Assembly: GCA_012839925.1 (NCBI GenBank)
Contig: DUMJ01000043.1
Coordinates: 21,023 to 85,022 of the forward strand
Origin: a bacterium
Lineage (GTDB): Bacteria; DUMJ01
Length of the DNA stretch: 64,000 bases
Direction: 5' to 3'
The notes under the pieces are model-generated. The model saw nothing but the letters and a program-made list of their open reading frames with translations. It did not search any database and had not been told where the DNA came from. Below, piece by piece: positions 1,692 through 64,000 of this stretch. Numbering within the stretch: the stretch's first letter is position 1; each line of letters begins with the position of its first letter. The position numbers were made by a program, and so were the translations under genes.

Positions 1692-1703
1692 ACGACTCCT
1701 CCT

Positions 1704-3725: not shown

Positions 3726-3756
3726 CTTTAACCTCTATTTTAGATTTCTAAATTAA

Positions 3757-3784
3757 GAGACGGAAATCAACCCCAAAATATTCC
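3757..3784 (-). promoter_or_regulatory. Candidate ECF-type autoregulatory promoter (-35 GGAAAT, ~18-nt spacer, -10 CGTCT) upstream of the sigma operon
   Basis: The minus strand reads aattccGGAAATattttggggttgatttcCGTCTcttaat about 35 nt upstream of the sigma start codon. This resembles the GGAAC...CGTC architecture of ECF promoters. Confidence 0.3.
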
Positions 3785-3894
3785 GGAATTTTAAAATCTA
3801 TACAACAGTATTTATTATACAACAATAATGTGATAATATAGAGATAAACTGAAGAGATGCTGTAATTTGCATAAATATTTGGTTATAGGAGGAA

Positions 3895-4953: not shown

Positions 4954-4960
4954 GAGAAGT

Positions 4961-5977: not shown

Positions 5978-5982
5978 GGGGT

Positions 5983-6831: not shown

Positions 6832-6835
6832 TCTG

Positions 6836-7794
<959 letters not shown>

Positions 7795-7942
7795 TATCTT
7801 AGTCTCCAATATTTTCAGGAAAATTCTAGCAGGGTCTTGATGTCTTTATTAAGATAATACAGCAAAACTAAGCTCCATTCTACCTTTCCAAGTTCTATTT
7901 TTATGATATAATATCCAAAAATGTGGAAAGGGGTGACTGGTA

Positions 7943-9910: not shown

Positions 9911-9924
9911 TGCTGGGAAAATTA

Positions 9925-9958
9925 CAGCCCCCTGATCCCTCAGGGGGCTGTTTATTTG
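9925..9958. terminator. Intrinsic terminator (10-bp GC stem cagccccctg/cagggggctg, then tttatttg), probably bidirectional between the MCP gene and the convergent creatininase-like gene
   Basis: The hairpin and T-run are seen directly. The A/T-rich 5' flank gives a weaker U-tract on the opposite strand. Confidence 0.7.
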
Positions 9959-9969
9959 TCATTGAAGAC

Positions 9970-11088: not shown

Positions 11089-11094
11089 CCCCTC

Positions 11095-19385: not shown

Positions 19386-21335
19386 GTGAGTAAGATTTTA
19401 AAGTACTTTTTAGTTACACTACTTAGTATTTCTTTAGTAACAGGTATAATCTCTGTTTCTTTTTCACAACAAAAAGTTGCTCCAGGACAATATGCCACTA
19501 TAGCTGAGTATCAGAAGGTCTCTGGGAAGAAAATAACCAAATTTAGCGAGGCTCCACAACTGGCAGATCTAGTAAAACAGGGGAAGCTCCCATCGGTAGA
19601 GAAGAGGCTATCAGAAGAACCAGCGGTGGTGGAGCCGATAGAGGAGATAGGTCAGTATGGTGGAAGCTTACAGGGTCCGCATCTTGGGAGATCTCCTCAG
19701 TATACCAGAATAACCTATGAGCCACTTGTCAGATGGAATCTAGAGACAGACAAGGTTATTCCTAACGTAGCTAAGAGCTGGAAGATAAGTAATGGTGGAA
19801 AGGTGATAACATTCTATCTCAGGAAGGGAATGAAATGGTCTGATGGAGAACCATTTACAGCAGATGACATTATATTCTGGTATGAAGATATAACACTGAA
19901 TAAAGACCTCACCCCTGTATTCCCAGCCTGGTTGATTGCTGGTGGAAAACCTGGTAAGGTAGAAAAAGTGGACAACTACACCGTGAGATTTGTATTTGAT
20001 GTTCCGTACACATTCCTCCTTCAAAGGATAGCCAGTGGACAGGACTGTTATGCCCCCAAGCACTATCTTAAGAAGTTTCATCCCAAATACACCTCGATGG
20101 ATGAAATAATGAAGCAGGCTAAAGAAGAAGGTTTTGACGCATGGTATAAACTATTTAGTACAAAAGCAACAAGATGGCAGAATAAAGCCCTTCCAGTAGT
20201 AACCGCATGGAAAGTTATAACACCACTAAGCGACGCTGTGTTTACTGCCGAGAGAAATCCATATTATTGGAAGGTAGATCCGGCTGGAAATCAGTTGCCG
20301 TATATTGATAAGATTGTCTGGACACTTTCTCCAGACAGAGAAGTAAGGGTAATGAAGCATATAAGTGGAGAGGCAAGTATAGGTTACTATGATACTTTTG
20401 AGTCCGACTATACCATTGTTATGGAAAACCAGCAAAAGGGTGGATATAGAGTTCTAAAATGGCTGCCAGCCCTTACCAATGTTGGGACTCTATTTATCAA
20501 TCAGAATGTAAAAGACCCTGTATTGAAGAAATTATTTACCAATGTTCAGTTTAGAAGGGCTCTATCTCTAGCTATTAACCGTAATGAAATTGCCCAGCTC
20601 ATATATTCAGGAAATGCTACACCCAGGCAGGCAGTTCCATTTAAAGGCTCACCGTACTATGAAGAGAGGTTCGAAAAATCTTACATAGAATATAACCCCA
20701 AAAAAGCCAGTCAGATGTTAGATCAGGTGGGGTTAGCTAAAAGAGATAAAGATGGTTATAGAATAGGACCTGATGGTAAGACATTGGAGATATTGATTGA
20801 GGTCTTACCTGGAATAGGTCCAGAGCCAGATATAGCAGAGATGATAAAGGGATACTTCAGGAATGTAGGATTAAAGGTTAGTGTCAAAACAGAGGAAACG
20901 TCACTCTGGGTGACAAGGGCTAAAGCAGGTGAACAGCAGATTGGTCTCTATGCATCAGCTGGGGCTTACTATCCACTTCTAGACCCTGTCTGGTTCTTCC
21001 CGGTATCTGACTTCTGTTACTGGGCTCCTCTGTGTGGATTATGGTATTCATCTAATGGAAAATCTGGCGAAGAGCCATCGGGAGAGATAAAGCAGCTATT
21101 GAACGTCTATGATCAGGCGGTATTAGCTGTTGGAGAAAAGGAAAGGACACTGTTAATAAAGAGAGCTCTGGATATATACTCCAAGAATCTCTGGACTATT
21201 GGTATAGTAGCTCCAAATACAAGGCTAGTTATAGTTAAGAATGAGCTCAGGAATGTTCCTGAGGTTACTATTCATGAAAATATAAATAACTGCCCTGGAC
21301 ATACAAATCCAGAACAGTGGTTCTTCAAAAAGTAA
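19386..21335 (+). CDS. ABC transporter family-5 solute-binding protein, orphan
   Basis: The ORF track starts at TTG 19377, but aggagg at 19371-19376 gives it no spacing. The in-frame GTG at 19386 lies 9 nt downstream (MSKILKYFLVTLLSISLV signal peptide). The protein is about 50% identical by eye to the SBPs at 13067 and 28898 (shared EEIGQYGGS and RKGMKWSDGEPFTADDIIFWYED). Confidence 0.85.
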   Translation: MSKILKYFLVTLLSISLVTGIISVSFSQQKVAPGQYATIAEYQKVSGKKITKFSEAPQLADLVKQGKLPSVEKRLSEEPAVVEPIEEIGQYGGSLQGPHLGRSPQYTRITYEPLVRWNLETDKVIPNVAKSWKISNGGKVITFYLRKGMKWSDGEPFTADDIIFWYEDITLNKDLTPVFPAWLIAGGKPGKVEKVDNYTVRFVFDVPYTFLLQRIASGQDCYAPKHYLKKFHPKYTSMDEIMKQAKEEGFDAWYKLFSTKATRWQNKALPVVTAWKVITPLSDAVFTAERNPYYWKVDPAGNQLPYIDKIVWTLSPDREVRVMKHISGEASIGYYDTFESDYTIVMENQQKGGYRVLKWLPALTNVGTLFINQNVKDPVLKKLFTNVQFRRALSLAINRNEIAQLIYSGNATPRQAVPFKGSPYYEERFEKSYIEYNPKKASQMLDQVGLAKRDKDGYRIGPDGKTLEILIEVLPGIGPEPDIAEMIKGYFRNVGLKVSVKTEETSLWVTRAKAGEQQIGLYASAGAYYPLLDPVWFFPVSDFCYWAPLCGLWYSSNGKSGEEPSGEIKQLLNVYDQAVLAVGEKERTLLIKRALDIYSKNLWTIGIVAPNTRLVIVKNELRNVPEVTIHENINNCPGHTNPEQWFFKK

Positions 21336-28897: not shown

Positions 28898-30877
28898 TTA
28901 TTTTATAAAGAACTGAACTGGTTCATACATATTCTCCCAATAGACATCATAACCACTGTATCCTACCTGGGGGACGTTATGCAGTTTATTACTTACCAGA
29001 CAGGGTTGAGGAATTAATCCTACAGTACCTATTATCCAGAGATTTCTTGCCTGAGACCTTAAGATTTCTCTCCCTGCTATAGTTCTCTCTCCTTCTTTGG
29101 TAGTAGTTTGCATCGTTTCAAACCACTTGAAGAGTCTCTTTATTTCTATTGGTGGCTCTTCTCCTGATTTCCCTCCTGTAGAATACCATGTGTACCAGAG
29201 AGGAGCAAATGTTGTTTGAGAACTGATAGGGACAAACCACTGGGGTTCTAGGGTAAATAATATATCTGTGCACCTATCTAGATGTCCTGAAGTGACTTCT
29301 AATTCATTAGCGTCTCTTCTTGTAGATAGAAGCTCTGATGTTGCTGGTTTAAGTGCAACCTTTATACCTATCTTCTCCCAATAATTTTTAACAAGTTCCC
29401 AGACTTCTCCCTCCGGGGCTTCACTAGATGGGTTAAATTCTGCCGTCAGAGTTAAGGGCTTACCATCTGGTCTTAGTCTGAATCCATCCTTATCCTTCTT
29501 CAGCCCCATACTATCTAAAAGTTTATTAGCCTGAGCGGGATCGTACTGTGCATAAGCAGTATCAAAACCCTTCTCAAAGTATCTACTCTCAGGTAAAACA
29601 GTAGCCTGTCTGGGAGTTCCCAAACCTAAAAATAGAAGTTGATTGATCTCTTCCCTATTTATAGCTAAAGAAAGTGCCCTTTTAAATCTTACATCATTTA
29701 TAATCTTTCTCATTACCGGATCTTTATGGGTATGATTCAACTTAATAGTTACAGCATTACCCCATGTCTGTCTCCAGAGTCTTACGCTGTAATTCCCCTT
29801 CTTTTCATTCTCTTTAAGAAGCGAATAGTCCTTTAGATTGGTACTGATTAGTCCAAAATCTACCTCCCCTCCGATAGCTTTCATATTCCAGAGTTCCCTA
29901 TTTGAAACTGCTGTTACCCGAATCCTATCGATATATGGAAGTTGTTTTCCTTCTGGATCTATCTTCCAGTAGTATGGATTACGTTCTAAACTAACATATT
30001 CTGTAGTAGCTTTTGTGACTATCCATGGTTCAATAGTAGGAACGCCAGCACTATTTAGAGAATGTCTTGTATTAGCTACTTCAGAAAATAGGTTGTACCA
30101 AGAATCAAATCCTTTCTCTTTTGCCAGTTCATTGGCTTTAGAATTATATTTGATATGAAATTGCTGGAGATAATGCTTGGGAAGATATGAACCCCAGGTG
30201 AGAGCCTCTCCTCTGTCTCTTGTAAGATTATATATAAACATAGGATAAGGAGCAGAGAAAGAAAACTCTACAGTATAATCATTTATCTTTTTAACCTTGA
30301 AAACCTCTCCACCAGGTTTTGTCCAGGCAGGGATGGACGGTGTAAGATCTTTGTTGAGAAGTACATCCTCATACCAGAAGACAAAATCATCTGCAGTAAA
30401 TGGATATCCATCAGACCATCGCATCCCTTCTCTTAAGAATAAGGTGCATTTTTTATAATCCCCTGAGTACTTATAACCTTTTGCTACGTTAGGGACAATA
30501 GTCTTAAGGTCGGGGAGTAGCTTGAATAATCTTTCAGCCTTCCAGTTGGCAAGAACCCAACCCATTGGATTTCCAGTATCTGCTAGATTCAAACTTCCTC
30601 CATACTGTCCAATCTCTTCTAGAGGTTCTATTACTCTTGGCTCTTTGGGAAGCCTCTCTCCAATGGGCGGAAGTTTTCCTGACTTTACAAGGTCTGTTAA
30701 CATAGGTGATTCGTTAAACTTGGTAATCTTTTTACCTGTAGTTTTTTCATAATCCTGTAGTGTAGTATAAGACTTAATCGTAGGCATCTTCTCTTGAGCA
30801 AAACTCAACGGTATTATCCCTCCAACTGAGATACATAAAGCTAATACTAAAATTAACACCCTTATACATCTATTCAT
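28898..30877 (-). CDS. ABC transporter family-5 solute-binding protein, orphan
   Basis: The ORF-track start (GTG 30886) is possible. The ATG at 30877 has an agaggtg RBS 8 nt upstream (MNRCIRVLILVLALCISV signal peptide). It is a paralog of the 13067 and 19386 SBPs. Confidence 0.85.
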   Translation of the reverse strand: MNRCIRVLILVLALCISVGGIIPLSFAQEKMPTIKSYTTLQDYEKTTGKKITKFNESPMLTDLVKSGKLPPIGERLPKEPRVIEPLEEIGQYGGSLNLADTGNPMGWVLANWKAERLFKLLPDLKTIVPNVAKGYKYSGDYKKCTLFLREGMRWSDGYPFTADDFVFWYEDVLLNKDLTPSIPAWTKPGGEVFKVKKINDYTVEFSFSAPYPMFIYNLTRDRGEALTWGSYLPKHYLQQFHIKYNSKANELAKEKGFDSWYNLFSEVANTRHSLNSAGVPTIEPWIVTKATTEYVSLERNPYYWKIDPEGKQLPYIDRIRVTAVSNRELWNMKAIGGEVDFGLISTNLKDYSLLKENEKKGNYSVRLWRQTWGNAVTIKLNHTHKDPVMRKIINDVRFKRALSLAINREEINQLLFLGLGTPRQATVLPESRYFEKGFDTAYAQYDPAQANKLLDSMGLKKDKDGFRLRPDGKPLTLTAEFNPSSEAPEGEVWELVKNYWEKIGIKVALKPATSELLSTRRDANELEVTSGHLDRCTDILFTLEPQWFVPISSQTTFAPLWYTWYSTGGKSGEEPPIEIKRLFKWFETMQTTTKEGERTIAGREILRSQARNLWIIGTVGLIPQPCLVSNKLHNVPQVGYSGYDVYWENMYEPVQFFIK

Positions 30878-31083
30878 ACTGTTCACCTCTATAAAATAAG
30901 AATTTTAAAAATTCTAAACTTTCGCCTAAACTCAAGTACCATCTAATACTACCTTTTCAGGTTAACTTGCCTGGGTTACTCTTTAATCTTTTGATAACTT
31001 CTATGTCTCTTCTCAAGCATCACTTCCTTTTTAAACTACAGTTTTACCATTTACCCTTCCATTACTCAGCTCTGGATCTGAGA

Positions 31084-35195: not shown

Positions 35196-36512
35196 ATGGA
35201 AGAATATATACCATATGAGTTGAAGGGCAAAGAACTTCTGGAGGTTATAAACCTTGGTTCAAAGTTTAGCAAAGAGGAGTCTATAGAGCTTAAATTTTAT
35301 GTAAAGACTACCGGAAATCTGGTCAAGGTAGCGCAGGATATAGCCAGAGACGAAACAACCGGACCCTGGGTAGGGCAGGGAGAACCTACCCAATTATTTA
35401 TCCGATCTCAGGCAGATGTTGATAGGATAGAGAGATACGGTGAAAAAGAAGGAGTTATTTATATAAGAACACCCCTTTTCAATATTTCCAGTGAGACAGA
35501 CCCTCTATACCAGTTTATTATGCTTGCGGTAGGGGGACCCGTGCTTGAATTTGTTTATTATCAGGAGGTCGCGCTTCTGGATTTTTCTTTTCCCAGAAAT
35601 TTCCTGGAAAGATTCCCCGGACCAAAGTTTGGTATAAATGGGGTGAGGAAACTGTTAAATCTTAAGGATGGAGAACCTATAATAGGCACAATTGTGAAAC
35701 CCTGTGCTGGTCTTACCCCCAGAGAAGTAGCGGAAAAATGTTATCAATCTGCTTTAGGAGGGGTGATGTTTATAAAGGATGATGAAAAGATGCTTGGTCC
35801 AGACTATTGTCCCTTGGAAGAAAAGGTAAAACTTGTCTCTCAGGCTTTAAAGAGGGCAGAGGAGGAAACCGGTAGAAAATGTCTCTATGCACCACATATT
35901 GTTGCTAGGGCTGACAAGATTAAAGATGTGGCAAAGAGGGCTATAGAATGGGGAGCCACTGCATTAATGTTTAATGCGGTCCTGGGTCATACCTATGAAG
36001 CTCTCAGTATTCTGGCTGAGGATAAGGAGATAGATGTTCCTCTTTATGCCCATTCTGGTGGAAGATCAGGGCTTTCTACCGGACCAAGAAGGATAGACGA
36101 TACTGTGATAGCAAAGCTACTGCGGTACAGTGGAGCAGATTTCTTCCAGCATGGGGTTTTTGGTATGAAAGAGATGCATGTTGCCTCTCTGGATGACGGA
36201 CTCCTCCATAACCTTGTCAGAGTTATGAGAGAAGATGTGGGCGTAAGAGACACGATACCTGTAGCTGCAGGTGGTCTGGGTGTAACCAATGCTGGAATTA
36301 ATCTTAAAGAGCATAAAGACGAAAGATTTGGTTATAGTGTGGCTCTTTTAGCTGGTTCAAATATTCTGAAGCATCCAGATGGTCCCAAAGCTGGAGCGAC
36401 AGCTATGCATCAGGCAGTTCAGGCTTACTATGAAAAGGGGATAACTGAAAAGGGGCAATTGAAAGAGTATGCCATTAAGAGAGGGTGGGAAGAATTACTG
36501 AAGATATTATAG
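35196..36512 (+). CDS. RuBisCO large-subunit-like protein (form IV-type RLP)
   Basis: 438 aa. GTIVKPCAGL aligns with RuBisCO GTIIKPKLGL, keeping K175 but with K177 replaced by Cys. GGVMFIKDDE keeps K201, D203 and E204. FFQHGVFGMKEM keeps the H327 and K334 equivalents. PVAAGGLGV has S379 replaced by Ala, and LLAGSNILKHP replaces the GGG motif with AGS. The RBS is aggagga. Confidence 0.8.
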   Translation: MEEYIPYELKGKELLEVINLGSKFSKEESIELKFYVKTTGNLVKVAQDIARDETTGPWVGQGEPTQLFIRSQADVDRIERYGEKEGVIYIRTPLFNISSETDPLYQFIMLAVGGPVLEFVYYQEVALLDFSFPRNFLERFPGPKFGINGVRKLLNLKDGEPIIGTIVKPCAGLTPREVAEKCYQSALGGVMFIKDDEKMLGPDYCPLEEKVKLVSQALKRAEEETGRKCLYAPHIVARADKIKDVAKRAIEWGATALMFNAVLGHTYEALSILAEDKEIDVPLYAHSGGRSGLSTGPRRIDDTVIAKLLRYSGADFFQHGVFGMKEMHVASLDDGLLHNLVRVMREDVGVRDTIPVAAGGLGVTNAGINLKEHKDERFGYSVALLAGSNILKHPDGPKAGATAMHQAVQAYYEKGITEKGQLKEYAIKRGWEELLKIL

Positions 36513-54706: not shown

Positions 54707-56194
54707 TTACTCACTGAGGCTAAGTTTTACTGCCTGCTTCCATCCACCGTATAGTCTTTCTCTTTCCGCTGAACTCATCTCTGGTATAAATACCCTGTCT
54801 ATCTCTCTCAGAGATGTAAGTTCATCTGGATTATTCCATATTCCTGTTGCCAGACCGGCAATAAATGCTGATCCAAGTGCTGATAGTTCCTCAATTTTAA
54901 CCCTGACTACCGGAACATTTAAAATATCTGCCTGAAATTGCATTAGAAAGTTGTCTCTTGTAGGTCCACCGTCAACTCTAAGCTCTTTTAAAGTTATGCT
55001 TGATTCTTCTGTCATCAACTCTATAATATCTCTTATCTGATAAGCTATTGATTCTTCGGCAGCCCTTATAATATGCGCCTTTCTGGTATTTGATGACATA
55101 CCTGTAATTATCGCTCTTGCGTCACTATCCCAATATGGTGCTCCTAATCCAACGAATGCAGGGACAAAGTATACGCCATTGTTATCATCCACTGTACTTG
55201 CTAAAATTCCAGCCTCTTTTGAATTAGCAAGAAGCTCTAGATTTTCTACCAGCCACTTTATTGTGGCACCGGTATAATTTATATTTCCCTCCAGAACATA
55301 AGAAATTCCATTTTTAGTATTCCAGCCTATAGATGTTACTATACCGCTGGCAGGAATTACCAATCTATCTCCTATATTCATCATTACAGAAGAGCCAGTG
55401 CCATATGTTGCTTTAGCCATACCCTTTTCAAAACAGGCTTGACCAAAGAGTGCAGCATGGGAGTCTCCTGTGATTCCTGTTACAGGAATACTTCTCCTGA
55501 TCTTGTTTCCTAGTGAAAAATATCCAAATATCTCATCAGATTTTTTCACCATGGGCATCATAGATTCTGGTATAGTAAATATCTCTAAAAGTTCTTTGTC
55601 CCAGCTTAATTCTCTAATATTGAACAGCTGGGTACGGCTGGCATTGGTGTAATCGGTCAGGTGGTTTTCACCATTTGTAAGTTTCCATATAAGCCAGGAA
55701 TCAATAGTTCCACATAGTAATTCTCCTGATTCAGCCCTCTCTCTGGCTGATTCTATATTATCCAGGATCCACTTTATTTTGGATGCTGAGAAGTAAGGTG
55801 ATAAGACTAGTCCGGTTTTTTCTTTTATAGTTTTCTGGAGACCTTCCCTCTCTAACTTTTTACATATCTCTGAGCTACGCTGACATTGCCATACAACAGC
55901 GTTGCATACCGGTTTTCCGGTCTTTTTACTCCAGACCACAGCGGTTTCTCTCTGATTTGTTATAGATAATGCAGCTATATCTTCTATAGCCACCCCACTT
56001 TCCTGGATCACTTTATTAATAGCTATAAGTGTATTTTCATATATCTCTTCAGGATTGTGCTCTACCCAACCTGGCTTTGGATAATATTGCTTATGCTCAA
56101 TATTAAATCTGTGAACCAGTTTTCCCACACTGTTAAAAATAATTGCTTTTGTACTGGAGGTGCTCTGGTCTATAGATAGGATATATCTTTCCAT
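54707..56194 (-). CDS. glpK: Glycerol kinase
   Basis: 495 aa. It aligns colinearly with E. coli GlpK: YPKPGWVEHNP, ITNQRET, GKPVCNAVVWQCQRS, TDYTNASRTQLFNI, GMAKATYGTGS, NGVYFVPAFVGLGAPYWD, LRVDGGPTRDNFLMQFQADIL and YGGWKQAVK. Confidence 0.9.
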   Translation of the reverse strand: MERYILSIDQSTSSTKAIIFNSVGKLVHRFNIEHKQYYPKPGWVEHNPEEIYENTLIAINKVIQESGVAIEDIAALSITNQRETAVVWSKKTGKPVCNAVVWQCQRSSEICKKLEREGLQKTIKEKTGLVLSPYFSASKIKWILDNIESARERAESGELLCGTIDSWLIWKLTNGENHLTDYTNASRTQLFNIRELSWDKELLEIFTIPESMMPMVKKSDEIFGYFSLGNKIRRSIPVTGITGDSHAALFGQACFEKGMAKATYGTGSSVMMNIGDRLVIPASGIVTSIGWNTKNGISYVLEGNINYTGATIKWLVENLELLANSKEAGILASTVDDNNGVYFVPAFVGLGAPYWDSDARAIITGMSSNTRKAHIIRAAEESIAYQIRDIIELMTEESSITLKELRVDGGPTRDNFLMQFQADILNVPVVRVKIEELSALGSAFIAGLATGIWNNPDELTSLREIDRVFIPEMSSAERERLYGGWKQAVKLSLSE

Positions 56195-56200
56195 AGAAAC

Positions 56201-57658
56201 CTATTCCTTAATCTGTTTAAGCCTTATTGCAATATAGGGCTTTGATGGAAGACATATTTTAAACTCACCCTCATATATCCCAGGGACTTCTTCTACTGTC
56301 ATATCCCAGGTGTCTATAATCTCAACCTTGAATCTTATCCCCGAAGGTAACTTAAATATTCTATATGCCGGCTGATTAAAACCAAGATAGATAATATAAT
56401 ATTCTCCCTCTATTCCACCACATGGTACATCGGTATACATATGTATCGGATTTATCCCGTAATTTGGTCCTTCCTCTATTATTCTTCTTAAAAATGCTAT
56501 TCTCTCTGGACTCTTGCCGTATAACTTCCCACCTTTTGACCACCACAGTATATCCTCTGGATGGAGATATGTTTCACCATGCCCTACATATCCACCTCTA
56601 ACATATCCCTCCCAGAATCTCCTTACCATTTCTTCGCCGGTTATGCTTCCCCATCCTCTATGTATATTTCCTTCATAGGCACATTCATCTATCACCACAG
56701 GTTTTTTGTATGTTTCTCTCCAGGTATCAGTATTCTCAGCAGTTTTATACCAGTCCACTCTCTGAATGCTGCAGTGGGTTACCCATGGTTTTGTAAAATC
56801 ATACATAACTCTACAGTTATGTATGGACCTCAAATGTCCATAGGGGTCATTTTCCCTTATTATTCTGGCAAATCTCTCCCAATCCAACAGGGTTTTGGAT
56901 CGCATGATGTCATACTCGTTTGCCAGCGACCACCATACATTTCTGAATGCAGAAAAACGGGCTATTACATATTTGAGATATCTATCATCAAATTCTCCAT
57001 CCATTGTTGAGAAACCCCAGCGGTCATAAGGATGAAAGAGTATCATATCTGCCTCTATTCCCAAATCCTGCAGGTCCTTTATCCTTACCTCCATATGCCT
57101 GAAGAATTCGACGTTAAACCTGCTAAAATCCCAACCTCTCTCTGGAGAGCCTTCAAAGGGATAATACTCAGGCTCATTATGGTTAAACTCATAATGTTTT
57201 GGGAATACACACATCCTCAGTTTATTAAATGGTGATTTTTTCAGGGTATCCAGTGTCTGTTTCTCAAGCTCTTCTCCCTGATGTACCCAGGCGTAACATG
57301 TTGTTCCTATTGGATAATAAGGCGTTCCATCTTCGTAGGCAAAGTGAAATGTATTCACAACCCTTACAGGTCCGTGGTTATTTTGAGAGGGGGGCACACA
57401 TAAAAATTTACCTTCTATCCTATCCAGTGAGTTGATGTTACTTGCTGTTGTAAAGCTCCATTCTCCTTCTGAGTCGGGCATAAATCTTATCTTATAGGTT
57501 CCATCTCCATCATAAAAACCTTCAACTTCAACCTTTTTATTTTTGTATTTGAATTCTGCCCTTATACTGATGTCTAAAAAGGGATTACCCTCAGATGGTC
57601 CATTTAATGTAGTTTCGAATATCCCCCACCTCTCAACTTTCATAAGACTTTCTTCCAT
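56201..57658 (-). CDS. DUF5060 + DUF4038 protein (GH140-like putative glycoside hydrolase), cytoplasmic
   Basis: 485 aa. The N-terminus VERWGIFETTLNGPSEGNPFLDISIRAEFKYKNKKVEVEGFYDGDGTYKIRFMPDSEGEW matches my recollection of the DUF5060 Ig-like domain preceding a DUF4038 TIM-barrel. There is no signal peptide. It lies 6 nt upstream of glpK. Confidence 0.45.
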   Translation of the reverse strand: MEESLMKVERWGIFETTLNGPSEGNPFLDISIRAEFKYKNKKVEVEGFYDGDGTYKIRFMPDSEGEWSFTTASNINSLDRIEGKFLCVPPSQNNHGPVRVVNTFHFAYEDGTPYYPIGTTCYAWVHQGEELEKQTLDTLKKSPFNKLRMCVFPKHYEFNHNEPEYYPFEGSPERGWDFSRFNVEFFRHMEVRIKDLQDLGIEADMILFHPYDRWGFSTMDGEFDDRYLKYVIARFSAFRNVWWSLANEYDIMRSKTLLDWERFARIIRENDPYGHLRSIHNCRVMYDFTKPWVTHCSIQRVDWYKTAENTDTWRETYKKPVVIDECAYEGNIHRGWGSITGEEMVRRFWEGYVRGGYVGHGETYLHPEDILWWSKGGKLYGKSPERIAFLRRIIEEGPNYGINPIHMYTDVPCGGIEGEYYIIYLGFNQPAYRIFKLPSGIRFKVEIIDTWDMTVEEVPGIYEGEFKICLPSKPYIAIRLKQIKE

Positions 57659-57815: not shown

Positions 57816-58913
57816 TTATCCCCAATCCATCTCTGCTTTTCTTATCAGTTCTTTTGCGACCTCTAATTCTGTTATTGGAAATAGGAGATACAGTCCGTCT
57901 GCTCCATAACGTTTTACTATTTTATCTGCTTTTTTTATCCAATCATCAAAATTTCCTTCTTCAATACTGATCCAGAGAGATTTTCCAGCGTTTCTTACCA
58001 TATCATATACGGGATACCAGTCTTCACTACCTCCATCTGGTTTACCTGCCCCTGGAGTCCACTGGATAGCATCTACTTTTTCCACTTTAAGTATGGCAGG
58101 CAGATGTTTTATAGCATCTGGTCCATCGAGGTGATATAAAACATAATCCAGTCTATTACACTGATATGTAAGTGACGGTATAAAGAACTCATAAAACTGT
58201 TTCGGAGACATAACAGCTGAAAAATCACACTGGACTTTAGCGGTCTTACCAGGTCCCCATATATCGAATACTGTATAGCTACTGCTTCCATCTGTACATT
58301 TTACGATTTCATACATGGCATCATAGTATTTAAAGTAGAGCTCATCTGTCTGCTTTATATATTTTTTTACTATATCAGGGCTATCAATAAGGTCATATAT
58401 AAATTTTTGTGCCCCCCTTAAAGAGGAAAGAATATCTATGCTCTCTATTATATCCGGTATATTTACGAGGAAATCATCGCCTGCCAACTCCTTAGCTTTA
58501 CGGATCAGGCTCAGGTGGAGTTTCCACCAGTAGTTATCTTCATCATATCTCAGAGGTCCCCAATCAGACCAGTCAGAAGTAACACATGGTGTATACCATA
58601 CCGTATCCCAGGAGAATACAGGTTCTGAGCCTAAATACGTAGCCATTGAGCCTGGTCCTATATTTATATTTAGAGAGGGAAATGATTCTGCCAGGAAGAG
58701 GTGAGTTCGGCAAAAATTACGTAATTCTTTTACTTTTCTATCTACATCTAGATGATATTCCATTGGGGTTCTGGGAGGTTCTATTATTTCTAAGGGCTCT
58801 ACAGGGTCTTCCAGTCTTCCTATAACCCTCATCATAGGTCTATCTATCCTGGAGTGCCTCCACCAGGCGACAAATCGACTTTTAGTTTCTTCCCAATTAT
58901 CTTTATATCTCAT
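57816..58913 (-). CDS. URO-D/MtaA-superfamily protein, uncharacterised subfamily (paralog A)
   Basis: 365 aa. IDRPMMRVIGR resembles the URO-D DRxPVWxMRQAGR motif. NIGPGSMATYLGSE resembles GFAGAPWTLMTYMVEG. LRGAQKFIYDLIDSPDIV resembles the LRGxE...DxxxxPExV region. The YHLDGP and IQWTPGAG motifs are shared with paralog B. It lies downstream of the split transketolase. Confidence 0.4.
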   Translation of the reverse strand: MRYKDNWEETKSRFVAWWRHSRIDRPMMRVIGRLEDPVEPLEIIEPPRTPMEYHLDVDRKVKELRNFCRTHLFLAESFPSLNINIGPGSMATYLGSEPVFSWDTVWYTPCVTSDWSDWGPLRYDEDNYWWKLHLSLIRKAKELAGDDFLVNIPDIIESIDILSSLRGAQKFIYDLIDSPDIVKKYIKQTDELYFKYYDAMYEIVKCTDGSSSYTVFDIWGPGKTAKVQCDFSAVMSPKQFYEFFIPSLTYQCNRLDYVLYHLDGPDAIKHLPAILKVEKVDAIQWTPGAGKPDGGSEDWYPVYDMVRNAGKSLWISIEEGNFDDWIKKADKIVKRYGADGLYLLFPITELEVAKELIRKAEMDWG

Positions 58914-58952
58914 AAATTTCCTCCTAGCCCTTTATTGCTCCCGCAGTGATTT

Positions 58953-59906
58953 TTATCCCCTCCTCAACTCTTTCAATACAATATTACTGATACCTTCTGG
59001 AGTGATGTTATAATGCTCTAGTATCTCCTTTTGAGAGCCAGTTATCGAAAACTCATCAGGTATGCCTGCTATATACATTTTTACCGGAAGTCTCCTGATT
59101 AATACTTCTGCCACAGCAGACCCCAGCCCTCCCTTTATATTGTGCTCTTCAACAGTAACTATGAATTCAGTTTTTCTGGCAGATTCTATTATAATTTCTT
59201 CATCTATCGGCTTAACTGTATGCATATCTATAACTCTAGTATATATACCTTTATCCCTCAGAATTAAGGCAGCATCATAGGCTGTTTTGACAACTTCTCC
59301 TGTGGCAATTATAGTGGCATCAGCTCCATCTGATAACAGGTTAGCCTTGCCTATGTTGAAAAAGATATTCTCATCATAGACATTTTCAACAGGATTCCTT
59401 CCCATTCTGATATAAGCAGGCTTATTGTAAGATACAAGAGATTTAACCAGAGCCTTTGTCTGATTTACATCGCAGGGGAGTATTACAGTCATATTGGGAA
59501 TGGCTCGCATAAAGGCTATATCTTCTAAGGAGTGATGGGTAGAACCTAAGGGACCATAACTGACACCTCCGCTTACTCCAATTATCTTAACATCCCTGTT
59601 TGTATAGGCAACATCTATCTTTATCTGCTCAATACTCCTTGTACTTAAAAAACAGGCTGGAGCAAAAACGAATGGCTTCTTTCCACAACCTGCAAGTCCA
59701 CTTGCTATACTTATCAGGTTCTGTTCTGCTATCCCAACGTCTATAAACTGTCCTGGAAGATGTTCTGCAAAATTTTCTACACTGGCAGACCCTCTGGAGT
59801 CAGAAGTTAAAACAACGATATCCCTGTCTTCTTTAGCCAATTCAAATAATGCCTCGCTAAAAGCCTTTCTACACGGCAGAACCGATGTCTTCTCTGACAT
59901 TATCAT
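58953..59906 (-). CDS. Transketolase, C-terminal subunit (pyrimidine-binding + C-terminal domains)
   Basis: 317 aa. Motifs: FIDVGIAEQNLISIASGLA, FVFAPACFLSTRSIEQI and GPLGSTHHSLEDIAFMRAIP. Confidence 0.9.
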   Translation of the reverse strand: MIMSEKTSVLPCRKAFSEALFELAKEDRDIVVLTSDSRGSASVENFAEHLPGQFIDVGIAEQNLISIASGLAGCGKKPFVFAPACFLSTRSIEQIKIDVAYTNRDVKIIGVSGGVSYGPLGSTHHSLEDIAFMRAIPNMTVILPCDVNQTKALVKSLVSYNKPAYIRMGRNPVENVYDENIFFNIGKANLLSDGADATIIATGEVVKTAYDAALILRDKGIYTRVIDMHTVKPIDEEIIIESARKTEFIVTVEEHNIKGGLGSAVAEVLIRRLPVKMYIAGIPDEFSITGSQKEILEHYNITPEGISNIVLKELRRG

Positions 59907-60726
59907 CCTCCTGATTTAATTCCCTGATCATTCTGGTATACTCTTCTGAGGTAGGAATCTTGTGATGCCATTCTGGTTTGTCCTCAATGAATGATACCCC
60001 TTTACCCTTTACAGTATGAGCCAGTATGAGAGTGGGTTTATTATATTTTACTGGCACACTCTCAAATACTGTTACTAATTGACTAATGTTGTGTCCGTTC
60101 ACCTCCACCACTTCCCAGCCAAAGGAAGCCCACTTTGCAGACAGATCTCCTAAACTCATAACATACTCGGTAGGTCCGCCAATTTGAAGTTTATTCCTGT
60201 CCACTATACCAATAAGATTGTCCAGTTTATAATGCTTGGCACACATAGCTGCTTCCCATATAGAACCCTCTGCCTGTTCTCCATCTCCCATCAATACATA
60301 CACCTTATAATCTTTTTTATCCATCTTCCCCGCAAGAGCCATCCCTACCCCAAGAGAGAGTCCATGCCCTAAAGAGCCGGTATTAGCTTCTACTCCAGGG
60401 ATTTTGACCGTTGGATGACCTGTTAATCTCGAATTGAATTTACAGTAGGTTTTCAGTTCTTCTCTATCTATAAATCCTAGATCTGCCAGAATAGTATAAT
60501 ATCCCTCCACACTATGTCCCTTGCTTAAGATAAATCTATCTCTGTCGGTCCAGACGGGATTCCTAGGGTCTATCCTCAGGATCTTATAATAAAGTGTAAC
60601 TAGTATGTCGGTAGATGAAAGAGACCCTCCAATATGTCCTGTCCCTGAATGATAAATCATATCCACTATATTCCTTCTTATCTCTTTTGCCTTATTCTCC
60701 AGGAATGAGATGTCTATACCTTCCAT
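59869..60726 (-). CDS. Transketolase, N-terminal subunit (TPP-binding)
   Basis: 285 aa. Motifs: GHIGGSLSSTDILVTLYYK, SKGHSVEGYYT and GSLGHGLSLGVGMALA. It overlaps the C-terminal subunit gene by 38 nt. Confidence 0.9.
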   Translation of the reverse strand: MEGIDISFLENKAKEIRRNIVDMIYHSGTGHIGGSLSSTDILVTLYYKILRIDPRNPVWTDRDRFILSKGHSVEGYYTILADLGFIDREELKTYCKFNSRLTGHPTVKIPGVEANTGSLGHGLSLGVGMALAGKMDKKDYKVYVLMGDGEQAEGSIWEAAMCAKHYKLDNLIGIVDRNKLQIGGPTEYVMSLGDLSAKWASFGWEVVEVNGHNISQLVTVFESVPVKYNKPTLILAHTVKGKGVSFIEDKPEWHHKIPTSEEYTRMIRELNQEDDNVREDIGSAV

Positions 60727-60841
60727 TATCTTCTCCTATGTCTTATTTTAGAATATTTTACACTTATATGAATAAGATTGGCAACATAAAAAGGAATGAA
60801 GAAGGGGTGGTAAAAAAAGGGTCTGTATGACCAGAATCTGC

Positions 60842-60871
60842 TTGCAGATATTACAGGGATTATTGTATAAT
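60842..60871 (+). promoter_or_regulatory. Sigma-70-type promoter (ttgcag-N18-tg-tataat) upstream of the FMN riboswitch
   Basis: An extended -10 tgtataat at 60864-60871 and a -35-like ttgcag at 60842-60847 are seen directly. Confidence 0.5.
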
Positions 60872-60895
60872 ATCTCAAGAATTGAATGTTGATAG

Positions 60896-61020
60896 TGTTA
60901 CCTTCGGGGATGGGTGAGGAGTATTTACTCCAACTCCCTACCGGCGGTAAAGCCCGCAAGCCTTTATGGCAGAACTGGTGAAATTCCAGTGCCGACGGTA
61001 TAGTCCGGATGGGAGAAGGT
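60896..61020 (+). ncRNA. FMN riboswitch (RFN element) aptamer
   Basis: The sequence contains ccttcgggg...ctaCCGGCGGTAAAGCCCGCAAGC...GGTGAAATTCCAGTGCCGACGGTATAGTCCGGATGGGAGAAGG. These are the hallmark conserved blocks of the RFN element (compare B. subtilis ribD leader ...GACCGGCGGTAGTAAAGC...GCCGACAGTGAAAGTCTGGATGGGAGAAGGA). It lies on the same strand as, and immediately 5' of, an ECF S-component gene. Confidence 0.8.
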
Positions 61021-61040
61021 ATTTTTTATTGGTTAAAAAT

Positions 61041-61070
61041 AGCCCCGAAGTTCTTCGGGGCTTAAATTTT
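61041..61070 (+). terminator. Riboswitch expression-platform intrinsic terminator (agccccgaa-gttc-ttcggggct + taaatttt)
   Basis: A 9-bp GC stem with a U-rich tail lies 20 nt after the aptamer and just before the RBS aaggagg (61073-61079). The stem-arm sequence cttcgggg also occurs at the 5' end of the aptamer (60902-60909). Confidence 0.6.
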
Positions 61071-61087
61071 ATAAGGAGGTTTGTGCT

Positions 61088-61624
61088 ATGCGTAGGAGTA
61101 TCAAAATATATGTTGGAGGAGCGTTATTGTCTGCTATCGGATTTATACTGATGCTCTTTCAGGTTCCTCTTATACCGGAGGCAAATTTCTTACTCTATGA
61201 TCCAGGAGATGTCGCTGTTCTTCTTGCTGGTATTGTATATGGACCCTGGATAGGATTTCTCTCTATTTTAATAAAGAATATCCTTTACTTTATTATAAAA
61301 GGTCTGGGTGGTCCTATAGGTGTCCTTATGAATACCATAGCAACTGGAGGTTTTGTAATTGTACCTGCCCTTATCCTTAAATATAATAGTAAAATTCTTA
61401 TCCCAGCTCTTCTGGCGGGAGTGGCTGCCAAAACATTAATAATGATACCGGTAAATCTGGTTTTTACACCTATGTACACAGGACTTCCAGTGGCAGAAGT
61501 ATGGAATCTTATAAAGGTGGCAGTTATTCCGTTTAATATAGTTCAAGGATCAATTAATATGCTCTTGTTTTTACTGATCTATGGGGTGTTAGAGCGGTAT
61601 TTAAAAAAGATGGTAGCCAAATGA
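61088..61624 (+). CDS. ribU: ECF-transporter substrate-specific (S) component, riboflavin-type (RibU-like)
   Basis: 178 aa with about six TM segments. LSAIGFILMLFQVPL is typical of ECF S-components. It sits directly behind an FMN riboswitch. No EcfA/EcfT genes are adjacent, so this is a group-II S-component. Confidence 0.65.
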   Translation: MRRSIKIYVGGALLSAIGFILMLFQVPLIPEANFLLYDPGDVAVLLAGIVYGPWIGFLSILIKNILYFIIKGLGGPIGVLMNTIATGGFVIVPALILKYNSKILIPALLAGVAAKTLIMIPVNLVFTPMYTGLPVAEVWNLIKVAVIPFNIVQGSINMLLFLLIYGVLERYLKKMVAK

Positions 61625-61682
61625 AATTTTTAAAGGGATAGCCATCATAGAATAAGACTATCCCCTGTCTTAACAGACTGGA

Positions 61683-62741
61683 TTACCTCACACTTTTAAG
61701 GAATTCCCTTGCACCAGTTTCACTATCAAACCAGGTAGATATTAACACCCCTTTACCCGAAAATTCATCAAAGATCCTGGAGATATTATTTTTGTCATCA
61801 AATGACTGGAGGACTAATAATTTATTGTGGGCTAATATCTTTTTATAGATGGGAAACCATCTGGGAGAGTCACACTGGGGGTTACCCTCTCCTGGAACCC
61901 ACTGTATTCCAGTTAATTCTGGAATATCCAGCAGGATGTCAAGATGTGGTATCTCTCCCGGACCATCTAGATGATATATGGAGTAATCCAGCCATTTACA
62001 CTGTTCTATTAAATAAGGAGCTACAAACTTTTCAAACATCTTTGGAGATATCATATAGGAGAAGTCACACTGTAATGGGTACCATCTTTTATGACACCAT
62101 ATACCCATCCATGCCGATGTCCCCTCTTGATACTCCTTTATCATACTGTATAAATCGTCATATACCTTAAACCAGGACCTCAGTATCTTATCTGACATAT
62201 ATAGCACTCTCTCCGGCTCTTCAATCAGGTCTATTAAAAGATTCTTAGCACCTCTAAAAGATGAGAGAACATCTAAAACTCCCCCAATATCTGTTGTCCC
62301 AACTATAAACTTATCCTTTCCCCTCTCGATTGATAATCTGGTGATATATTTTGTATACTGCCACCACTCACCATCTTCTTTAAATTCCAATCTTTCTACA
62401 TCTTCCCAAGGGAGTGGACACTCGAACCAGGAAGTATTGGTATTTCCGTCAAACTTCAGGAAATCAGTATAATATGAGGCTAAGACGCCAGGTCCCAGAT
62501 TCATCCAGAGGTTAGGGAATGATTCTCCTCCAAAGAAAGTCTCACTGCATCTTTTTTCAAACAGGTCTATATTTTTCTCTGGACAAGATTTATACCTTAA
62601 GAATCCCCACCCATCATAACCCTCATAATCTTTTATCCCCTCTTTAGGACTTGCTACCTGCAGAAGAGGATAATCCAGCTCTTTATTCCACCACACTTTA
62701 TATATCTCTTTAATCTTATCCCAATCTTCTCTGTAAAACAT
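61683..62741 (-). CDS. URO-D/MtaA-superfamily protein, uncharacterised subfamily (paralog B)
   Basis: 352 aa. It shares motifs with paralog A throughout: FPNLWMNLGPGVLASY against FPSLNINIGPGSMATY, LSSFRGAKNLLIDLIEEPERV, QCDFSYMISPK, YHLDGP and IQWVPGEG. Confidence 0.4.
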   Translation of the reverse strand: MFYREDWDKIKEIYKVWWNKELDYPLLQVASPKEGIKDYEGYDGWGFLRYKSCPEKNIDLFEKRCSETFFGGESFPNLWMNLGPGVLASYYTDFLKFDGNTNTSWFECPLPWEDVERLEFKEDGEWWQYTKYITRLSIERGKDKFIVGTTDIGGVLDVLSSFRGAKNLLIDLIEEPERVLYMSDKILRSWFKVYDDLYSMIKEYQEGTSAWMGIWCHKRWYPLQCDFSYMISPKMFEKFVAPYLIEQCKWLDYSIYHLDGPGEIPHLDILLDIPELTGIQWVPGEGNPQCDSPRWFPIYKKILAHNKLLVLQSFDDKNNISRIFDEFSGKGVLISTWFDSETGAREFLKSVR

Positions 62742-62806
62742 CTATTTCTCCTTTTTTGCATAAAAGTCTTTTTACCATTATAATTATCTAAAGAGGTGAT
62801 TACAAG

Positions 62807-63619
62807 ATGATAAAATTATTGGCTTTCGATCTGGATGGGACTATCCTTGAAAATGGACTGGTAATCCCTGAAGAAACTAAAGAGGTATTGAATAAAATAG
62901 TGAATTTAGGTGTAAAGATTTCAACCGCCAGTGGACGCAAAATAGAGGACCAGATAAATATTATAAATTCTAATGGGCTGGGGGATGGGATGGGTTATCC
63001 TCATTCGCTTATAGTAAATGAATCTCAGATATACCTGTTAGATGGGGATCAGTATATCCCTCTGGATTCCTGGAATAGAAGGGTATCCGAAGAGTGGAAA
63101 GAACTCTATCCTTTAGCAGAAAGAATAATTTTAGAGGAGATGGGTAGACTAAAGAGTATGGGTGTAGGAGTTTCTATCCATATAATAGGAGAGGTCTCCC
63201 TGATTAGAAATATGGTGGCTGTGAGATTTAGCAGTATAGAGGAGGCAAAGAATTACGAGAAACAGTTAAGAGAAAAACTAAAATCCTCAGGGGTGCCTCT
63301 CTGGAGTAATTATAATTTTAGTCTGGTCCAGATACTTCCTCCATCGGCAGGTAAGGGGAATACAGTCTTAACTCTATCTAGGCATCTTGGATTACTACCA
63401 GAAGAGGTTCTGGTTATTGGAGATTCGGGGAATGATAAGGATATGCTTGATGGGAGATTTGGATTTCGGGTTGCTACAGTATCTAATGCTGAGCCAGAGA
63501 TAAAAGAAACTGTTGAAAGAAATGGTGGGTATGTAGCGGAAAATCCTGTAAGTAGAGGTATAATAGAGATTGTAAATAAACTTATACTGGGAGAGATAAA
63601 ATATGAGACTGGAATTTAA
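62807..63619 (+). CDS. HAD-superfamily (Cof-like, type IIB) phosphatase
   Basis: 270 aa. Motif I is FDLDGTIL. The C-terminal region VLVIGDSGNDKDML carries motifs III and IV. Confidence 0.8.
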   Translation: MIKLLAFDLDGTILENGLVIPEETKEVLNKIVNLGVKISTASGRKIEDQINIINSNGLGDGMGYPHSLIVNESQIYLLDGDQYIPLDSWNRRVSEEWKELYPLAERIILEEMGRLKSMGVGVSIHIIGEVSLIRNMVAVRFSSIEEAKNYEKQLREKLKSSGVPLWSNYNFSLVQILPPSAGKGNTVLTLSRHLGLLPEEVLVIGDSGNDKDMLDGRFGFRVATVSNAEPEIKETVERNGGYVAENPVSRGIIEIVNKLILGEIKYETGI

Positions 63620-64000
63620 TTCGGAAAAGTATCAGACTCAGATTGAAGAGTCCAGAAGAAGGCTTGAAATAGCCAGGAGCTTTAAAGAACCGGATAGGGT
63701 CCCAATCACTATAAGTACAGGTGGAAGTTTCTATTCCAGGTTGTTTGGTTTTAATATAAGAGATTATTACACCAATTTGGATGTTCAGATCGAGGTTCAG
63801 GTGAAGGGATTGAAGTGGGCATTTGAAGAATTGCAGGATGATAGAGTTGGATATGGTGTTAACCTTGATTTAGGACCTGTTTATGAGGGTATATATTTTG
63901 ATCTTCCTATAGAATATCCTGATGACACGTCTCCCTGGGTGGTGAGGACCATGAGTCTTCCGGAAGCGGTAGAAAGGCTGAAAACTCCTGACCCGGAAGA
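63614..64000 (+). CDS. URO-D/MtaA-superfamily protein, N-terminal 129 aa (gene continues beyond window)
   Basis: The partial ORF MRLEFNSEKYQ...EPDRVPITISTGGSFYSRLFG matches the URO-D/MtaA N-terminal DRVPV motif region. It overlaps the HAD gene by 6 nt. It is not in the ORF track because of edge truncation. Confidence 0.35.

Follow-up and report, generated by a model that had tools for sequence, protein, structure and literature searches.

Several described systems lie close to the genes considered here. In the uroporphyrinogen decarboxylase (UroD)/MtaA superfamily these are the methylcobamide:coenzyme M (CoM) methyltransferases MtaA and MtbA, which act as second methyltransferases (MT2; PDB 4ay7), the heme-pathway enzyme HemE (PF01208; PDB 1j93, 4exq, 2eja), and the first methyltransferases (MT1) of the MtvB/OdmB/VdmB/MtoB type, among them CdmB (PDB 9rui; PMC13222342). 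Here we analyze two homologous genes, paralogs A and B, in a 64,000-nucleotide stretch of a bacterial contig (DUMJ01000043.1, assembly GCA_012839925.1; the whole stretch is termed the window). An earlier reading of the sequence alone had placed these genes, together with a third open reading frame (ORF), in an uncharacterized URO-D-like subfamily linked to a split transketolase. We find that A and B represent two subfamilies, A-type and B-type, of a family outside Pfam, to which we give the working name FAM, and that FAM proteins are probably the substrate-specific modules of corrinoid-dependent methyl transfer.

The proteins differ from MtaA and MtbA in several respects: FAM is only 14% identical to them and falls below every Pfam and NCBIfam threshold, it possesses HxDG where these enzymes have HxCG, the segment of their third zinc ligand is absent, and two structural elements are added, a Trp-rich helix at the N-terminus and a hairpin (residues 98-127). 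The context of FAM is likewise different, consisting of carbohydrate loci in fermenting anaerobes with no CoM metabolism. The likeness to the MT1s of the UroD superfamily lies in the proposed role as a substrate-specific methyl donor to Co(I) and in the anaerobic hosts; moreover, one FAM fusion protein (P0376) reproduces MT1, the corrinoid protein (CP), and a pterin-binding MT2 in a single chain. In contrast to those MT1s, FAM shows marginal sequence similarity (profile E 0.6 to CdmB), its genes are mostly not clustered with genes for the CP, MT2, and activating enzyme (AE), and its presumed substrates are sugar-linked rather than aromatic ethers or halomethanes.

With MetH, P0376 shares the modular logic of a substrate-binding barrel, a pterin-binding barrel, and a B12-binding domain, and its N-terminal 470 residues align to the folate and B12 modules (E 1e-44). 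However, the domain order differs, FAM replaces the homocysteine-binding domain PF02574, there is no S-adenosylmethionine activation domain, and A and B are themselves single-domain proteins. Unlike HemE, A and B have neither a significant hemE match nor a heme-pathway context; the third ORF is the one that scores with PF01208. Finally, many FAM loci share a sensor kinase with an AraC regulator, a CUT1 ABC transporter, and a cytoplasmic glycoside hydrolase (GH) of family GH31 with the xyloglucan-oligosaccharide cluster of Ruminiclostridium cellulolyticum (PMC4780118). In that cluster a GH3 β-glucosidase stands beside GH31, whereas the FAM loci have FAM instead, and the presence of GH106, GH138-like, and apiosidase-like enzymes in them indicates, in part at least, pectic side chains of the rhamnogalacturonan II (RG-II) type.

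Family assignment and conserved residues

The two full-length paralogs were confirmed as ORFs and are homologous end to end, with a BLASTP identity of 31% (E 6e-55) rather than the 35-40% estimated by eye. The conserved blocks quoted by the sequence-only reading (FPxLxxNxGPG, LSS(L/F)RGA, QCDFS, YHLDGP, and IQWxPGxG) are all present in both proteins, and most of them fall on invariant columns of an 88-sequence alignment covering both subfamilies. In A numbering these columns are W17, W18, G86, W106, W129, D154, R166, W219, D230, H261, D263, G264, H270, Q284, and W285, with Q228 and C229 nearly invariant; B keeps the same invariant residues.

A search against PF01208, proposed earlier as a check, returned nothing: A and B lack any Pfam match even at E<=10 and thus do not reach the gathering cut-off of that model (23.9 bits). 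Among the NCBIfam models, the best match of A was MtaA_Meth (11.3 bits, E 0.12; cut-off 400 bits), B had none, and neither matched hemE (TIGR01464) at E<=1; by contrast, the URO-D gene of a relative's locus, L066, scores 146-172 bits on the mtaA_cmuA/MtaA-type models. Neither A nor B had a significant match when compared directly with PDB sequences, and a FAM profile yielded only marginal matches to MetE and CdmB.

In a profile-profile comparison by hhalign of A with an alignment of the PF01208 proteins encoded near FAM genes, the match had a probability of 99.2% (E 3e-19, 251 columns), and an HMM of these neighbors matched A at 1.4e-13 and B at 5.5e-21. The AlphaFold model of A (pLDDT 96.6) is very confident and contains the UroD-type (β/α)8 barrel; its nearest structural relative is a corrinoid methyltransferase, and Foldseek ranks the structural matches in the same order. 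Given that profile and structure comparison agree despite the silence of Pfam and NCBIfam, A and B almost certainly belong to the UroD/MtaA superfamily; the proposal of an uncharacterized branch is therefore upheld, and no unrelated fold emerged. FAM is a separate clade without a Pfam model, on the branch closest to the MtaA-type corrinoid methyltransferases.

The zinc ligands of MtaA, another suggested check, are not retained. The YHLDG block of FAM aligns on the HxCG of the URO-D neighbors, so that HxCG becomes HxDG; we take HxCG to be the MtaA zinc motif, contributing His and Cys alongside a downstream Cys, and the segment that presumably bears this third ligand ('..C..P.EN') is a gap in the FAM alignment. 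According to DSSP on the A model, D154, Q228-C229-D230, H261/D263, and Q284/W285 lie at or just past the C-terminal ends of consecutive strands, on the face where TIM barrels usually carry their active site.

A and B each have more than 1,000 homologs at 90% clustering (1297 for B). The closest cultured homolog of B, among the matches listed, is from Mahella australiensis (72% identity), and 3 of 120 listed B homologs carry a precomputed PF01208 match. Searching 1.84 billion representatives with the FAM profile recovered 1,101 clusters at E<=1e-30 and 3,434 at E<=1e-3 (50% identity clusters), and the taxa with FAM are almost all anaerobes. Members are labeled 'trimethylamine corrinoid protein 2', '5-methyl-THF--homocysteine methyltransferase', 'methionine synthase', or 'hypothetical' in their sources, and no description of the family was found in the literature searched, including searches for URO-D with GH31, sugar, polysaccharide utilization, and rhamnogalacturonan. 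FAM is thus a large family (more than 1,000 clusters) that is uncharacterized, mis-annotated, and absent from Pfam. Even with a substrate other than the one proposed below, a new clade of the UroD superfamily is defined and its annotation corrected.

Fusions and neighbors that link FAM to corrinoid proteins

We surveyed the 150 best representatives of the FAM profile search for fusions to B12-binding domains. P0376 (975 aa) consists of a pterin-binding methyltransferase (MeTr) domain (residues 1-258), a B12-binding domain (residues 287-483), and an A-type FAM domain (residues 581-963) with 45% identity to paralog A (E 3e-117). The first domain matches PDB 4o0q (E 1.5e-94) as well as AcsE (1f6y, E 5e-36) and the folate domains of MetH (AcsE and MetH together at E 1e-36 to 1e-45), while the second matches 1y80 (E 6e-54) and also MtmC, MtaC, and 4jgi. 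A single uninterrupted ORF of the contig encodes the whole protein, for which the precomputed Pfam matches are Pterin_bind, B12-binding_2, and B12-binding. The neighboring genes encode a DUF2284 protein, a FucI-like isomerase, and an AraC regulator, together with a GH31 enzyme sharing 44-64% identity with those that accompany unfused FAMs.

Two further proteins from independent contigs, P0489 and P0509, consist of FAM with a C-terminal B12-binding domain. Both are 40% identical to paralog B (E 1e-66 for the FAM domain of P0489), and the nearest unfused relatives of the two proteins are the FAMs of loci L166 and L169 (54-55% identical). Fusions are therefore found in both the A-type and the B-type subfamilies, with the same invariant residues kept. 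P0489 bears the source name 'methanogenic corrinoid protein MtbC1', which probably explains the spread of the misleading 'corrinoid protein' label to unfused members.

Separate CP genes were counted within a radius of 10 kb at 146 unfused loci and were found at six (L048, L051, L068, L090, L139, and L166). The gene order in L090, from a member of the Caldicellulosiruptoraceae, is CP-CobW-URO-D/Trx-CP-MtaB-URO-D-FAM-LacI-PfkB. In L048, L051, and L068, genes for a PocR-AraC regulator, a CP, and a 217-aa Cys-rich protein adjoin FucU-GH31-FAM; in L139 the CP gene belongs to the same co-directional run as FAM, and in L166 it lies directly upstream of FAM. L115 combines FAM with three URO-D genes and a MeTr-like gene. 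The earlier argument that the lack of a local corrinoid protein speaks against a methyltransferase is contradicted by the B12 and MeTr fusions of the relatives and by these six loci. Orthologs are not regularly placed beside corrinoid proteins, as ordinary methyltransferases would have been, since 96% of the loci are without one; despite this scarcity, corrinoid dependence is the likeliest mechanism in view of the fusions.

Some further observations concern the proteins found with these genes. The 217-aa protein, which has no Pfam match and a Cys-rich C-terminus (HDCSTCSAKNC), is always encoded after the CP gene (L048, 2713-3366; L051, 4930-5583; L068, 6198-6845), and the gene for the DUF2284 metal-binding protein precedes that of the P0376 fusion (L175, 65-601). 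Both are possible accessory or activation factors. The idea that these two and a 178-aa protein, flavin-reductase-like by eye, are shared accessory proteins was rejected, no mutual homology having been found. Other FAM architectures include an N-terminal domain that is metallo-β-lactamase-like by eye (HDHADH motif; P0437), a C-terminal extension of about 670 aa in a member from Planctomycetota (P0474), and an N-terminal domain of about 140 aa of no recognized identity (P0502 and P0504).

Genomic context of FAM genes

The contexts of 80 A-type genome loci and 80 B-type metagenome loci, with a few extra loci found by protein, were analyzed by calling ORFs anew, clustering them by BLAST, and annotating the cluster representatives. 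The A-type loci are carbohydrate utilization loci. Their neighbors encode an AraC-type response regulator (31 loci), a sensor kinase (22), CUT1 permeases (24 and 23), SBP_bac_1 proteins (17), FGGY kinases (7), a split transketolase (7), and sulfatases (5). GH31 occurs in 21 loci, in 10 of them immediately upstream on the same strand, and is joined by GH106 (5), GH95 (4), an apiosidase-like GH (4), and a 916-aa protein (4). The GH31 partner is α-xylosidase-like (E 1e-133 to CjXyl31A/BoGH31A), the GH95 partner resembles known fucosidases, including the enzyme of the B. ovatus XyGUL, and BPa0997, presumably the GH138 α-galacturonidase specific for RG-II chain A, is closely homologous to the 916-aa protein (E 7e-190). 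Genes of the α-xylosidase, fucosidase, rhamnosidase, and galacturonidase kinds are thus found next to FAM.

PF01208-type URO-D genes are the commonest enzyme neighbor after GH31, with occurrences within 10 kb at 26 of 84 loci of the A-type set and 12 of 76 loci of the B-type set. Most of them carry HxCG, and the one in L066 is clearly MtaA/CmuA-like. Several URO-D subfamilies are thus shown to be regular parts of carbohydrate utilization loci. In a neighbor-joining tree, the FAM copies beside GH31, GH95, GH106, and GH138-like genes are intermixed in one clade without partner-specific clades, and paralog A of the window groups with transketolase-linked and transporter-linked copies.

The B-type loci are heterogeneous, with GFO/IDH, NAD-dependent GH4, sulfatases, and many housekeeping genes as neighbors. 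The B-type gene of Mahella is located between genes for a GH3 enzyme and an esterase with faint glucuronoyl-esterase similarity, a neighborhood that would fit 4-O-methyl-glucuronate.

Proposed function

Three lines of evidence, namely the corrinoid methyltransferase as structural relative, the B12 fusions in both subfamilies, and the presence of MT1, CP, and MT2 in one chain, make an MT1-like role the most economical reading, and the catabolic sugar context suggests the demethylation of a carbohydrate-derived substrate. For A and B themselves the case is evenly balanced: they may be substrate-binding (MT1-like) modules of corrinoid-dependent demethylation in carbohydrate catabolism, perhaps acting on O-methyl sugars. 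They would then depend on a corrinoid protein whose gene lies in another part of the genome, and we infer demethylation as the direction of transfer.

In such a mechanism, the substrate-binding site would be on the C-terminal face of the TIM barrel, where invariant Trp, Asp, and His residues form the lining (D154, Q228-C229-D230, H261-x-D263, and Q284-W285). The methyl group of the substrate would pass to the Co(I) of the corrinoid protein, and a pterin-binding methyltransferase would then move it to tetrahydrofolate. By analogy with the zinc that activates methanol in MtaB, the Asp/His(/Cys) site might polarize the ether oxygen.

We tentatively suggest O-methylated sugars of plant cell-wall side chains as substrates of FAM, although we hold this with less confidence than the corrinoid-dependent role. 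An example is 2-O-methyl-xylose, which in the relatives would come from the neighboring GH31 α-xylosidase. The neighborhood of GH31, GH95, GH106, GH138-like, and apiosidase-like enzymes matches the set needed for RG-II chain A, the bearer of 2-O-methyl-xylose; the 2-O-Me-Xyl-α1,3-Fuc linkage is reportedly the one that Bacteroides thetaiotaomicron cannot cleave. More speculative still, and on present evidence rather unlikely, is that FAM catalyzes an unrecognized anaerobic O-demethylation of sugar methyl ethers via Co(I), with the methyl group passed on to tetrahydrofolate. Candidate ethers would be 2-O-methyl-xylose and 2-O-methyl-fucose of RG-II, 4-O-methyl-glucuronate of xylan, and algal 6-O-methyl-galactose. 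We know of no anaerobic route that removes the methyl group from methyl-etherified sugars, and the literature searched held nothing relevant on anaerobic O-methyl-sugar demethylation (O-methyl-xylose).

If true, this activity would be an anoxic counterpart to the P450 sugar demethylases of aerobes and would explain how gut and digester anaerobes use methylated sugars reportedly left behind by Bacteroides. Sugars with methyl ethers occur widely in pectin, xylan, and algal glycans, and P0376 is a ready-made candidate for a system in a single polypeptide. FAM would plausibly add a new substrate class to a known kind of protein, the corrinoid-dependent methyltransferase modules.

A number of points weigh against this proposal. 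No corrinoid protein gene lies near FAM at 96% of the loci, the window included; none was detected in the 64-kb window or the 10 kb past it, nor was a pterin-binding methyltransferase detected in the window (Pfam annotation of ORFs and six-frame HMM search). The fusions are rare, with two architectures among the 150 representatives, and the fused proteins are 40-45% identical to A or B, a level at which the function could differ. The B-type genes often lie amid housekeeping genes in heterogeneous loci, and several hosts (e.g., Mahella) are fermenters without an obvious methyl sink. To our knowledge, there is no precedent for a Co(I) that cleaves an alkyl (sugar) methyl ether, and none was found in the literature searched. 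No activating enzyme was identified, no search aimed at such enzymes having been made. The genes for known MT1s, CPs, MT2s, and AEs are usually clustered (PMC10989822); in the window no CP or MeTr gene accompanies A or B, and only rare relatives (P0376, L090, and L115) approach this arrangement. In addition, the GH31/GH95 contexts also fit xyloglucan, which is free of methyl ethers (PMC4780118).

Alternative explanations

FAM could be a corrinoid methyltransferase with a non-sugar substrate, either a methoxylated aromatic compound of the ferulate, syringate, or vanillate type or pectin-derived methanol, which we consider improbable. The B12 fusions and the corrinoid adjacency support such a substrate equally well. 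The best match of the P0376 MeTr domain is 4o0q, which we take to be the tetrahydrofolate methyltransferase of an aromatic O-demethylase of Desulfitobacterium hafniense; FAM stands beside MtaB and MtaC-like genes in L090, there is the weak profile match to the UroD-type MT1 CdmB, and aromatic rings, no less than sugars, could stack on the six invariant Trp residues. However, the recurrent neighbors encode sugar importers and exo-glycosidases and not esterases or aromatic-acid enzymes, and FAM is unrecognized by PF01208, which covers the known UroD-type MT1s. Furthermore, known aromatic O-demethylase genes cluster with CP, MT2, and AE genes, whereas FAM genes mostly do not (PMC10989822). We also considered 'MtgB', an MT1 of about 300 aa that is Bathyarchaeia-specific by its description (PMC10989822), but it probably belongs to a different family.

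Equally improbable is that most FAM proteins, A and B included, are corrinoid-independent carbohydrate enzymes (a glycosidase, metal-dependent sugar isomerase, lyase, or esterase) on a methyltransferase scaffold, with the B12 fusions as a minority that kept the ancestral function. This would account for the 96% of loci without a corrinoid protein gene and for the replaced zinc ligands of MtaA (HxDG, with the third-ligand segment missing), and the invariant Trp, Asp, and His residues at the strand C-termini are arranged as in sugar-active TIM barrels. Beside GH31, FAM fills the place held by the GH3 β-glucosidase in the R. cellulolyticum xyloglucan cluster; a new glycosidase replacing GH3 was indeed an earlier candidate, demoted to an alternative once the B12 fusions were found. 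NAD-dependent GH4 and GFO/IDH neighbors in B-type loci point the same way, as do other URO-D subfamilies of sugar loci, of the type of the third ORF, in phyla that also include aerobes. On the other side, the fusions occur in both subfamilies with the invariant residues unchanged, the fused A-type gene shares its GH31/AraC context with unfused ones, and the intermixing of FAM copies beside different GH families in one clade argues against a GH-like co-specialization. We know of no description of a UroD-fold glycosidase or isomerase.

The function favored by the sequence-only reading is very improbable, namely a URO-D-like enzyme that is co-transcribed with the transketolase genes tktA and tktB and whose substrate is a sugar phosphate or some other metabolite linked to transketolase. 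It is true that tktA, tktB, and A are co-directional, with a gap of 39 nt and no terminator-like site between tktB and A, that L009 and L011 repeat the order of N-terminal half, C-terminal half, and FAM, as do L010, with an insertion, and L020, with a gene for a 651-aa protein before FAM, and that FucI-like isomerases and FGGY kinases recur near FAM. Nevertheless, among the 80 loci of each type, only 7 of the A type, which come from two lineages, and 1 of the B type have a split transketolase within 10 kb. A variant strain of the window's own organism (L004, 13870-19547) carries a five-gene cassette between tktB and A, at a place corresponding to about 58914-58952 of the window; the cassette encodes a sensor kinase, an AraC response regulator, an SBP_bac_1 protein, and a pair of permeases. 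Paralog B and the third gene are outside the transketolase operon, the two halves score as a generic transketolase, and a transketolase is expected wherever pentoses such as xylose are released. Transketolase is an occasional neighbor and not a defining one, and beside A it is most likely a neighbor for pentose catabolism rather than a mechanistic partner.

Two pathway ideas built on the split transketolase were dropped: that of sulfoquinovose (sulfo-transketolase), from its combination with GH31 and glycerol kinase, because the GH31 partners are α-xylosidase-like, and that of D-apiose (apulose-4-P transketolase), from its combination with an apiosidase-like GH and a RuBisCO-large-subunit-like protein (RLP), because the transketolase is generic and the RLP is below the OiaX cut-off. 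In L020, L022, and L023 (about 1-11100), a long operon encodes a FucI-C-like isomerase, an Asp/Glu-racemase-like protein, a split transketolase, a TAL/FSA-type aldolase, a GH43/GH130-like β-propeller, a second split transketolase, the 651-aa (α/α)6-like protein, and FAM; it looks like an uncharacterized sugar-rearrangement pathway.

An ordinary HemE or an ordinary MtaA/MtbA-type methylcobamide:CoM methyltransferase, to which FAM is similar in fold only, can practically be dismissed, given that no hemE, mtaA_cmuA, or PF01208 model matches, the zinc motif is lost, and heme and methanogenesis genes are absent nearby.

Layout of the locus

Table 1 Features of the locus (positions in the window).
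Feature	Positions	Strand	Assignment and evidence
Paralog A	57816..58913	-	365 aa, cytoplasmic; FAM, UroD/MtaA superfamily
Paralog B	61683..62741	-	352 aa; FAM, subfamily other than that of A
Third ORF, N-terminal 132 codons	63603..64000	+	PF01208 URO-D protein of a separate subfamily; full length 369 aa
tktA, transketolase N-terminal (thiamine pyrophosphate-binding) half	59869..60726	-	Pfam Transketolase_N, E 3e-51; NCBIfam generic transketolase
tktB, transketolase C-terminal half	58953..59906	-	Pfam Transket_pyr + Transketolase_C
Cytoplasmic glycoside-hydrolase-like protein	56201..57658	-	Pfam DUF5060 / apiosidase-like catalytic domain / DUF5605; PDB 4n0r 'putative glycoside hydrolase', E 3e-124
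Glycerol kinase GlpK (FGGY family), end of minus-strand run	54707..56194	-	NCBIfam GlpK 700 and 658 bits, above cut-offs
Cof-type HAD-IIB phosphatase, opens operon continuing into third URO-D gene	62807..63619	+	Pfam Hydrolase_3 / S6PP; NCBIfam HAD-IIB
FMN riboswitch	60896-61024	+	RF00050, 106 bits
ECF-transporter S component (RibU-like)	61088-61624	+	directly 3' of FMN riboswitch

The minus-strand genes follow each other in the order tktA, tktB, paralog A, the apiosidase-like GH gene, and glpK (Table 1). As described earlier, A is directly downstream of the transketolase pair; an AGGAGG ribosome-binding site precedes its start codon, and the GH-like gene follows after 157 nt. No terminator-like site was found in the gap on either side of A, which makes co-transcription of the transketolase genes, A, and the GH-like gene plausible. 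The picture of URO-D-like genes grouped around the split transketolase holds for A but not for B, since the FMN riboswitch and riboflavin transporter unit separate B from tktA. This riboflavin uptake unit is self-contained and unrelated to the other genes, and contains a strong hairpin at 61041-61062. Paralog B is divergent from the operon of the HAD phosphatase and the third URO-D gene, with 65 nt in between; the HAD/URO-D order is also seen in L002-L005. The earlier statement that no corrinoid protein or heme gene is present locally proved correct: no heme biosynthesis gene was found among the annotated window ORFs (Pfam), and methanogenesis genes were likewise not found nearby.

The third gene and its subfamily

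The third ORF starts at an ATG at 63603, not at 63614 as first proposed, and overlaps the end of the HAD gene by 17 nt. The full-length gene (369 aa, PF01208) is present in contigs of the same organism (L001-L005) from biogas and other metagenomes, where it is followed by VOC/glyoxalase, UbiA, DUF362, and PMT_2 genes. It reaches the PF01208 cut-off at full length but not as the 132-aa fragment of the window, and its 300 homologs are all PF01208 proteins. BLASTP detects no similarity between the third ORF and A or B; hence, the locus contains two genes of one family and one of another URO-D subfamily, so that the earlier grouping of all three genes in one subfamily stands for A and B only. At the position of HxCG in MtaA, the third ORF carries HxDG (LHADGP), as does a subset of other URO-D proteins from sugar loci.

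The subfamily of the third ORF (PF01208, HxDG) is another uncharacterized URO-D clade in carbohydrate loci. It is widespread in Armatimonadota, Planctomycetota, Latescibacteria, and Chloroflexi, and its genes occur directly 3' of a Pect-lyase_RHGA_epim β-helix gene (e.g., L172, 5236-8119; L173, 216-3099; and L174). DUF6785 membrane proteins are encoded near this subfamily and also recur beside B-type FAM.

Other observations in the window

The RLP mentioned above is encoded at 35196-36512 (+), adjoining genes for a lactate permease and a GH38-like 1310-aa protein; it is below every NCBIfam cut-off, the best matches being DK-MTP-1-P enolase (184 bits) and OiaX of the apiose pathway (140 bits). 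The window also encodes three paralogs of an SBP_bac_5 (Opp-type) solute-binding protein, each about 655 aa long, at 13067-15052 (-), 19377-21335 (+), and 28898-30886 (-). Their genes are scattered among those for GH116, GH38-like, and ABC transporter proteins, which suggests a heavy investment in oligosaccharide uptake.

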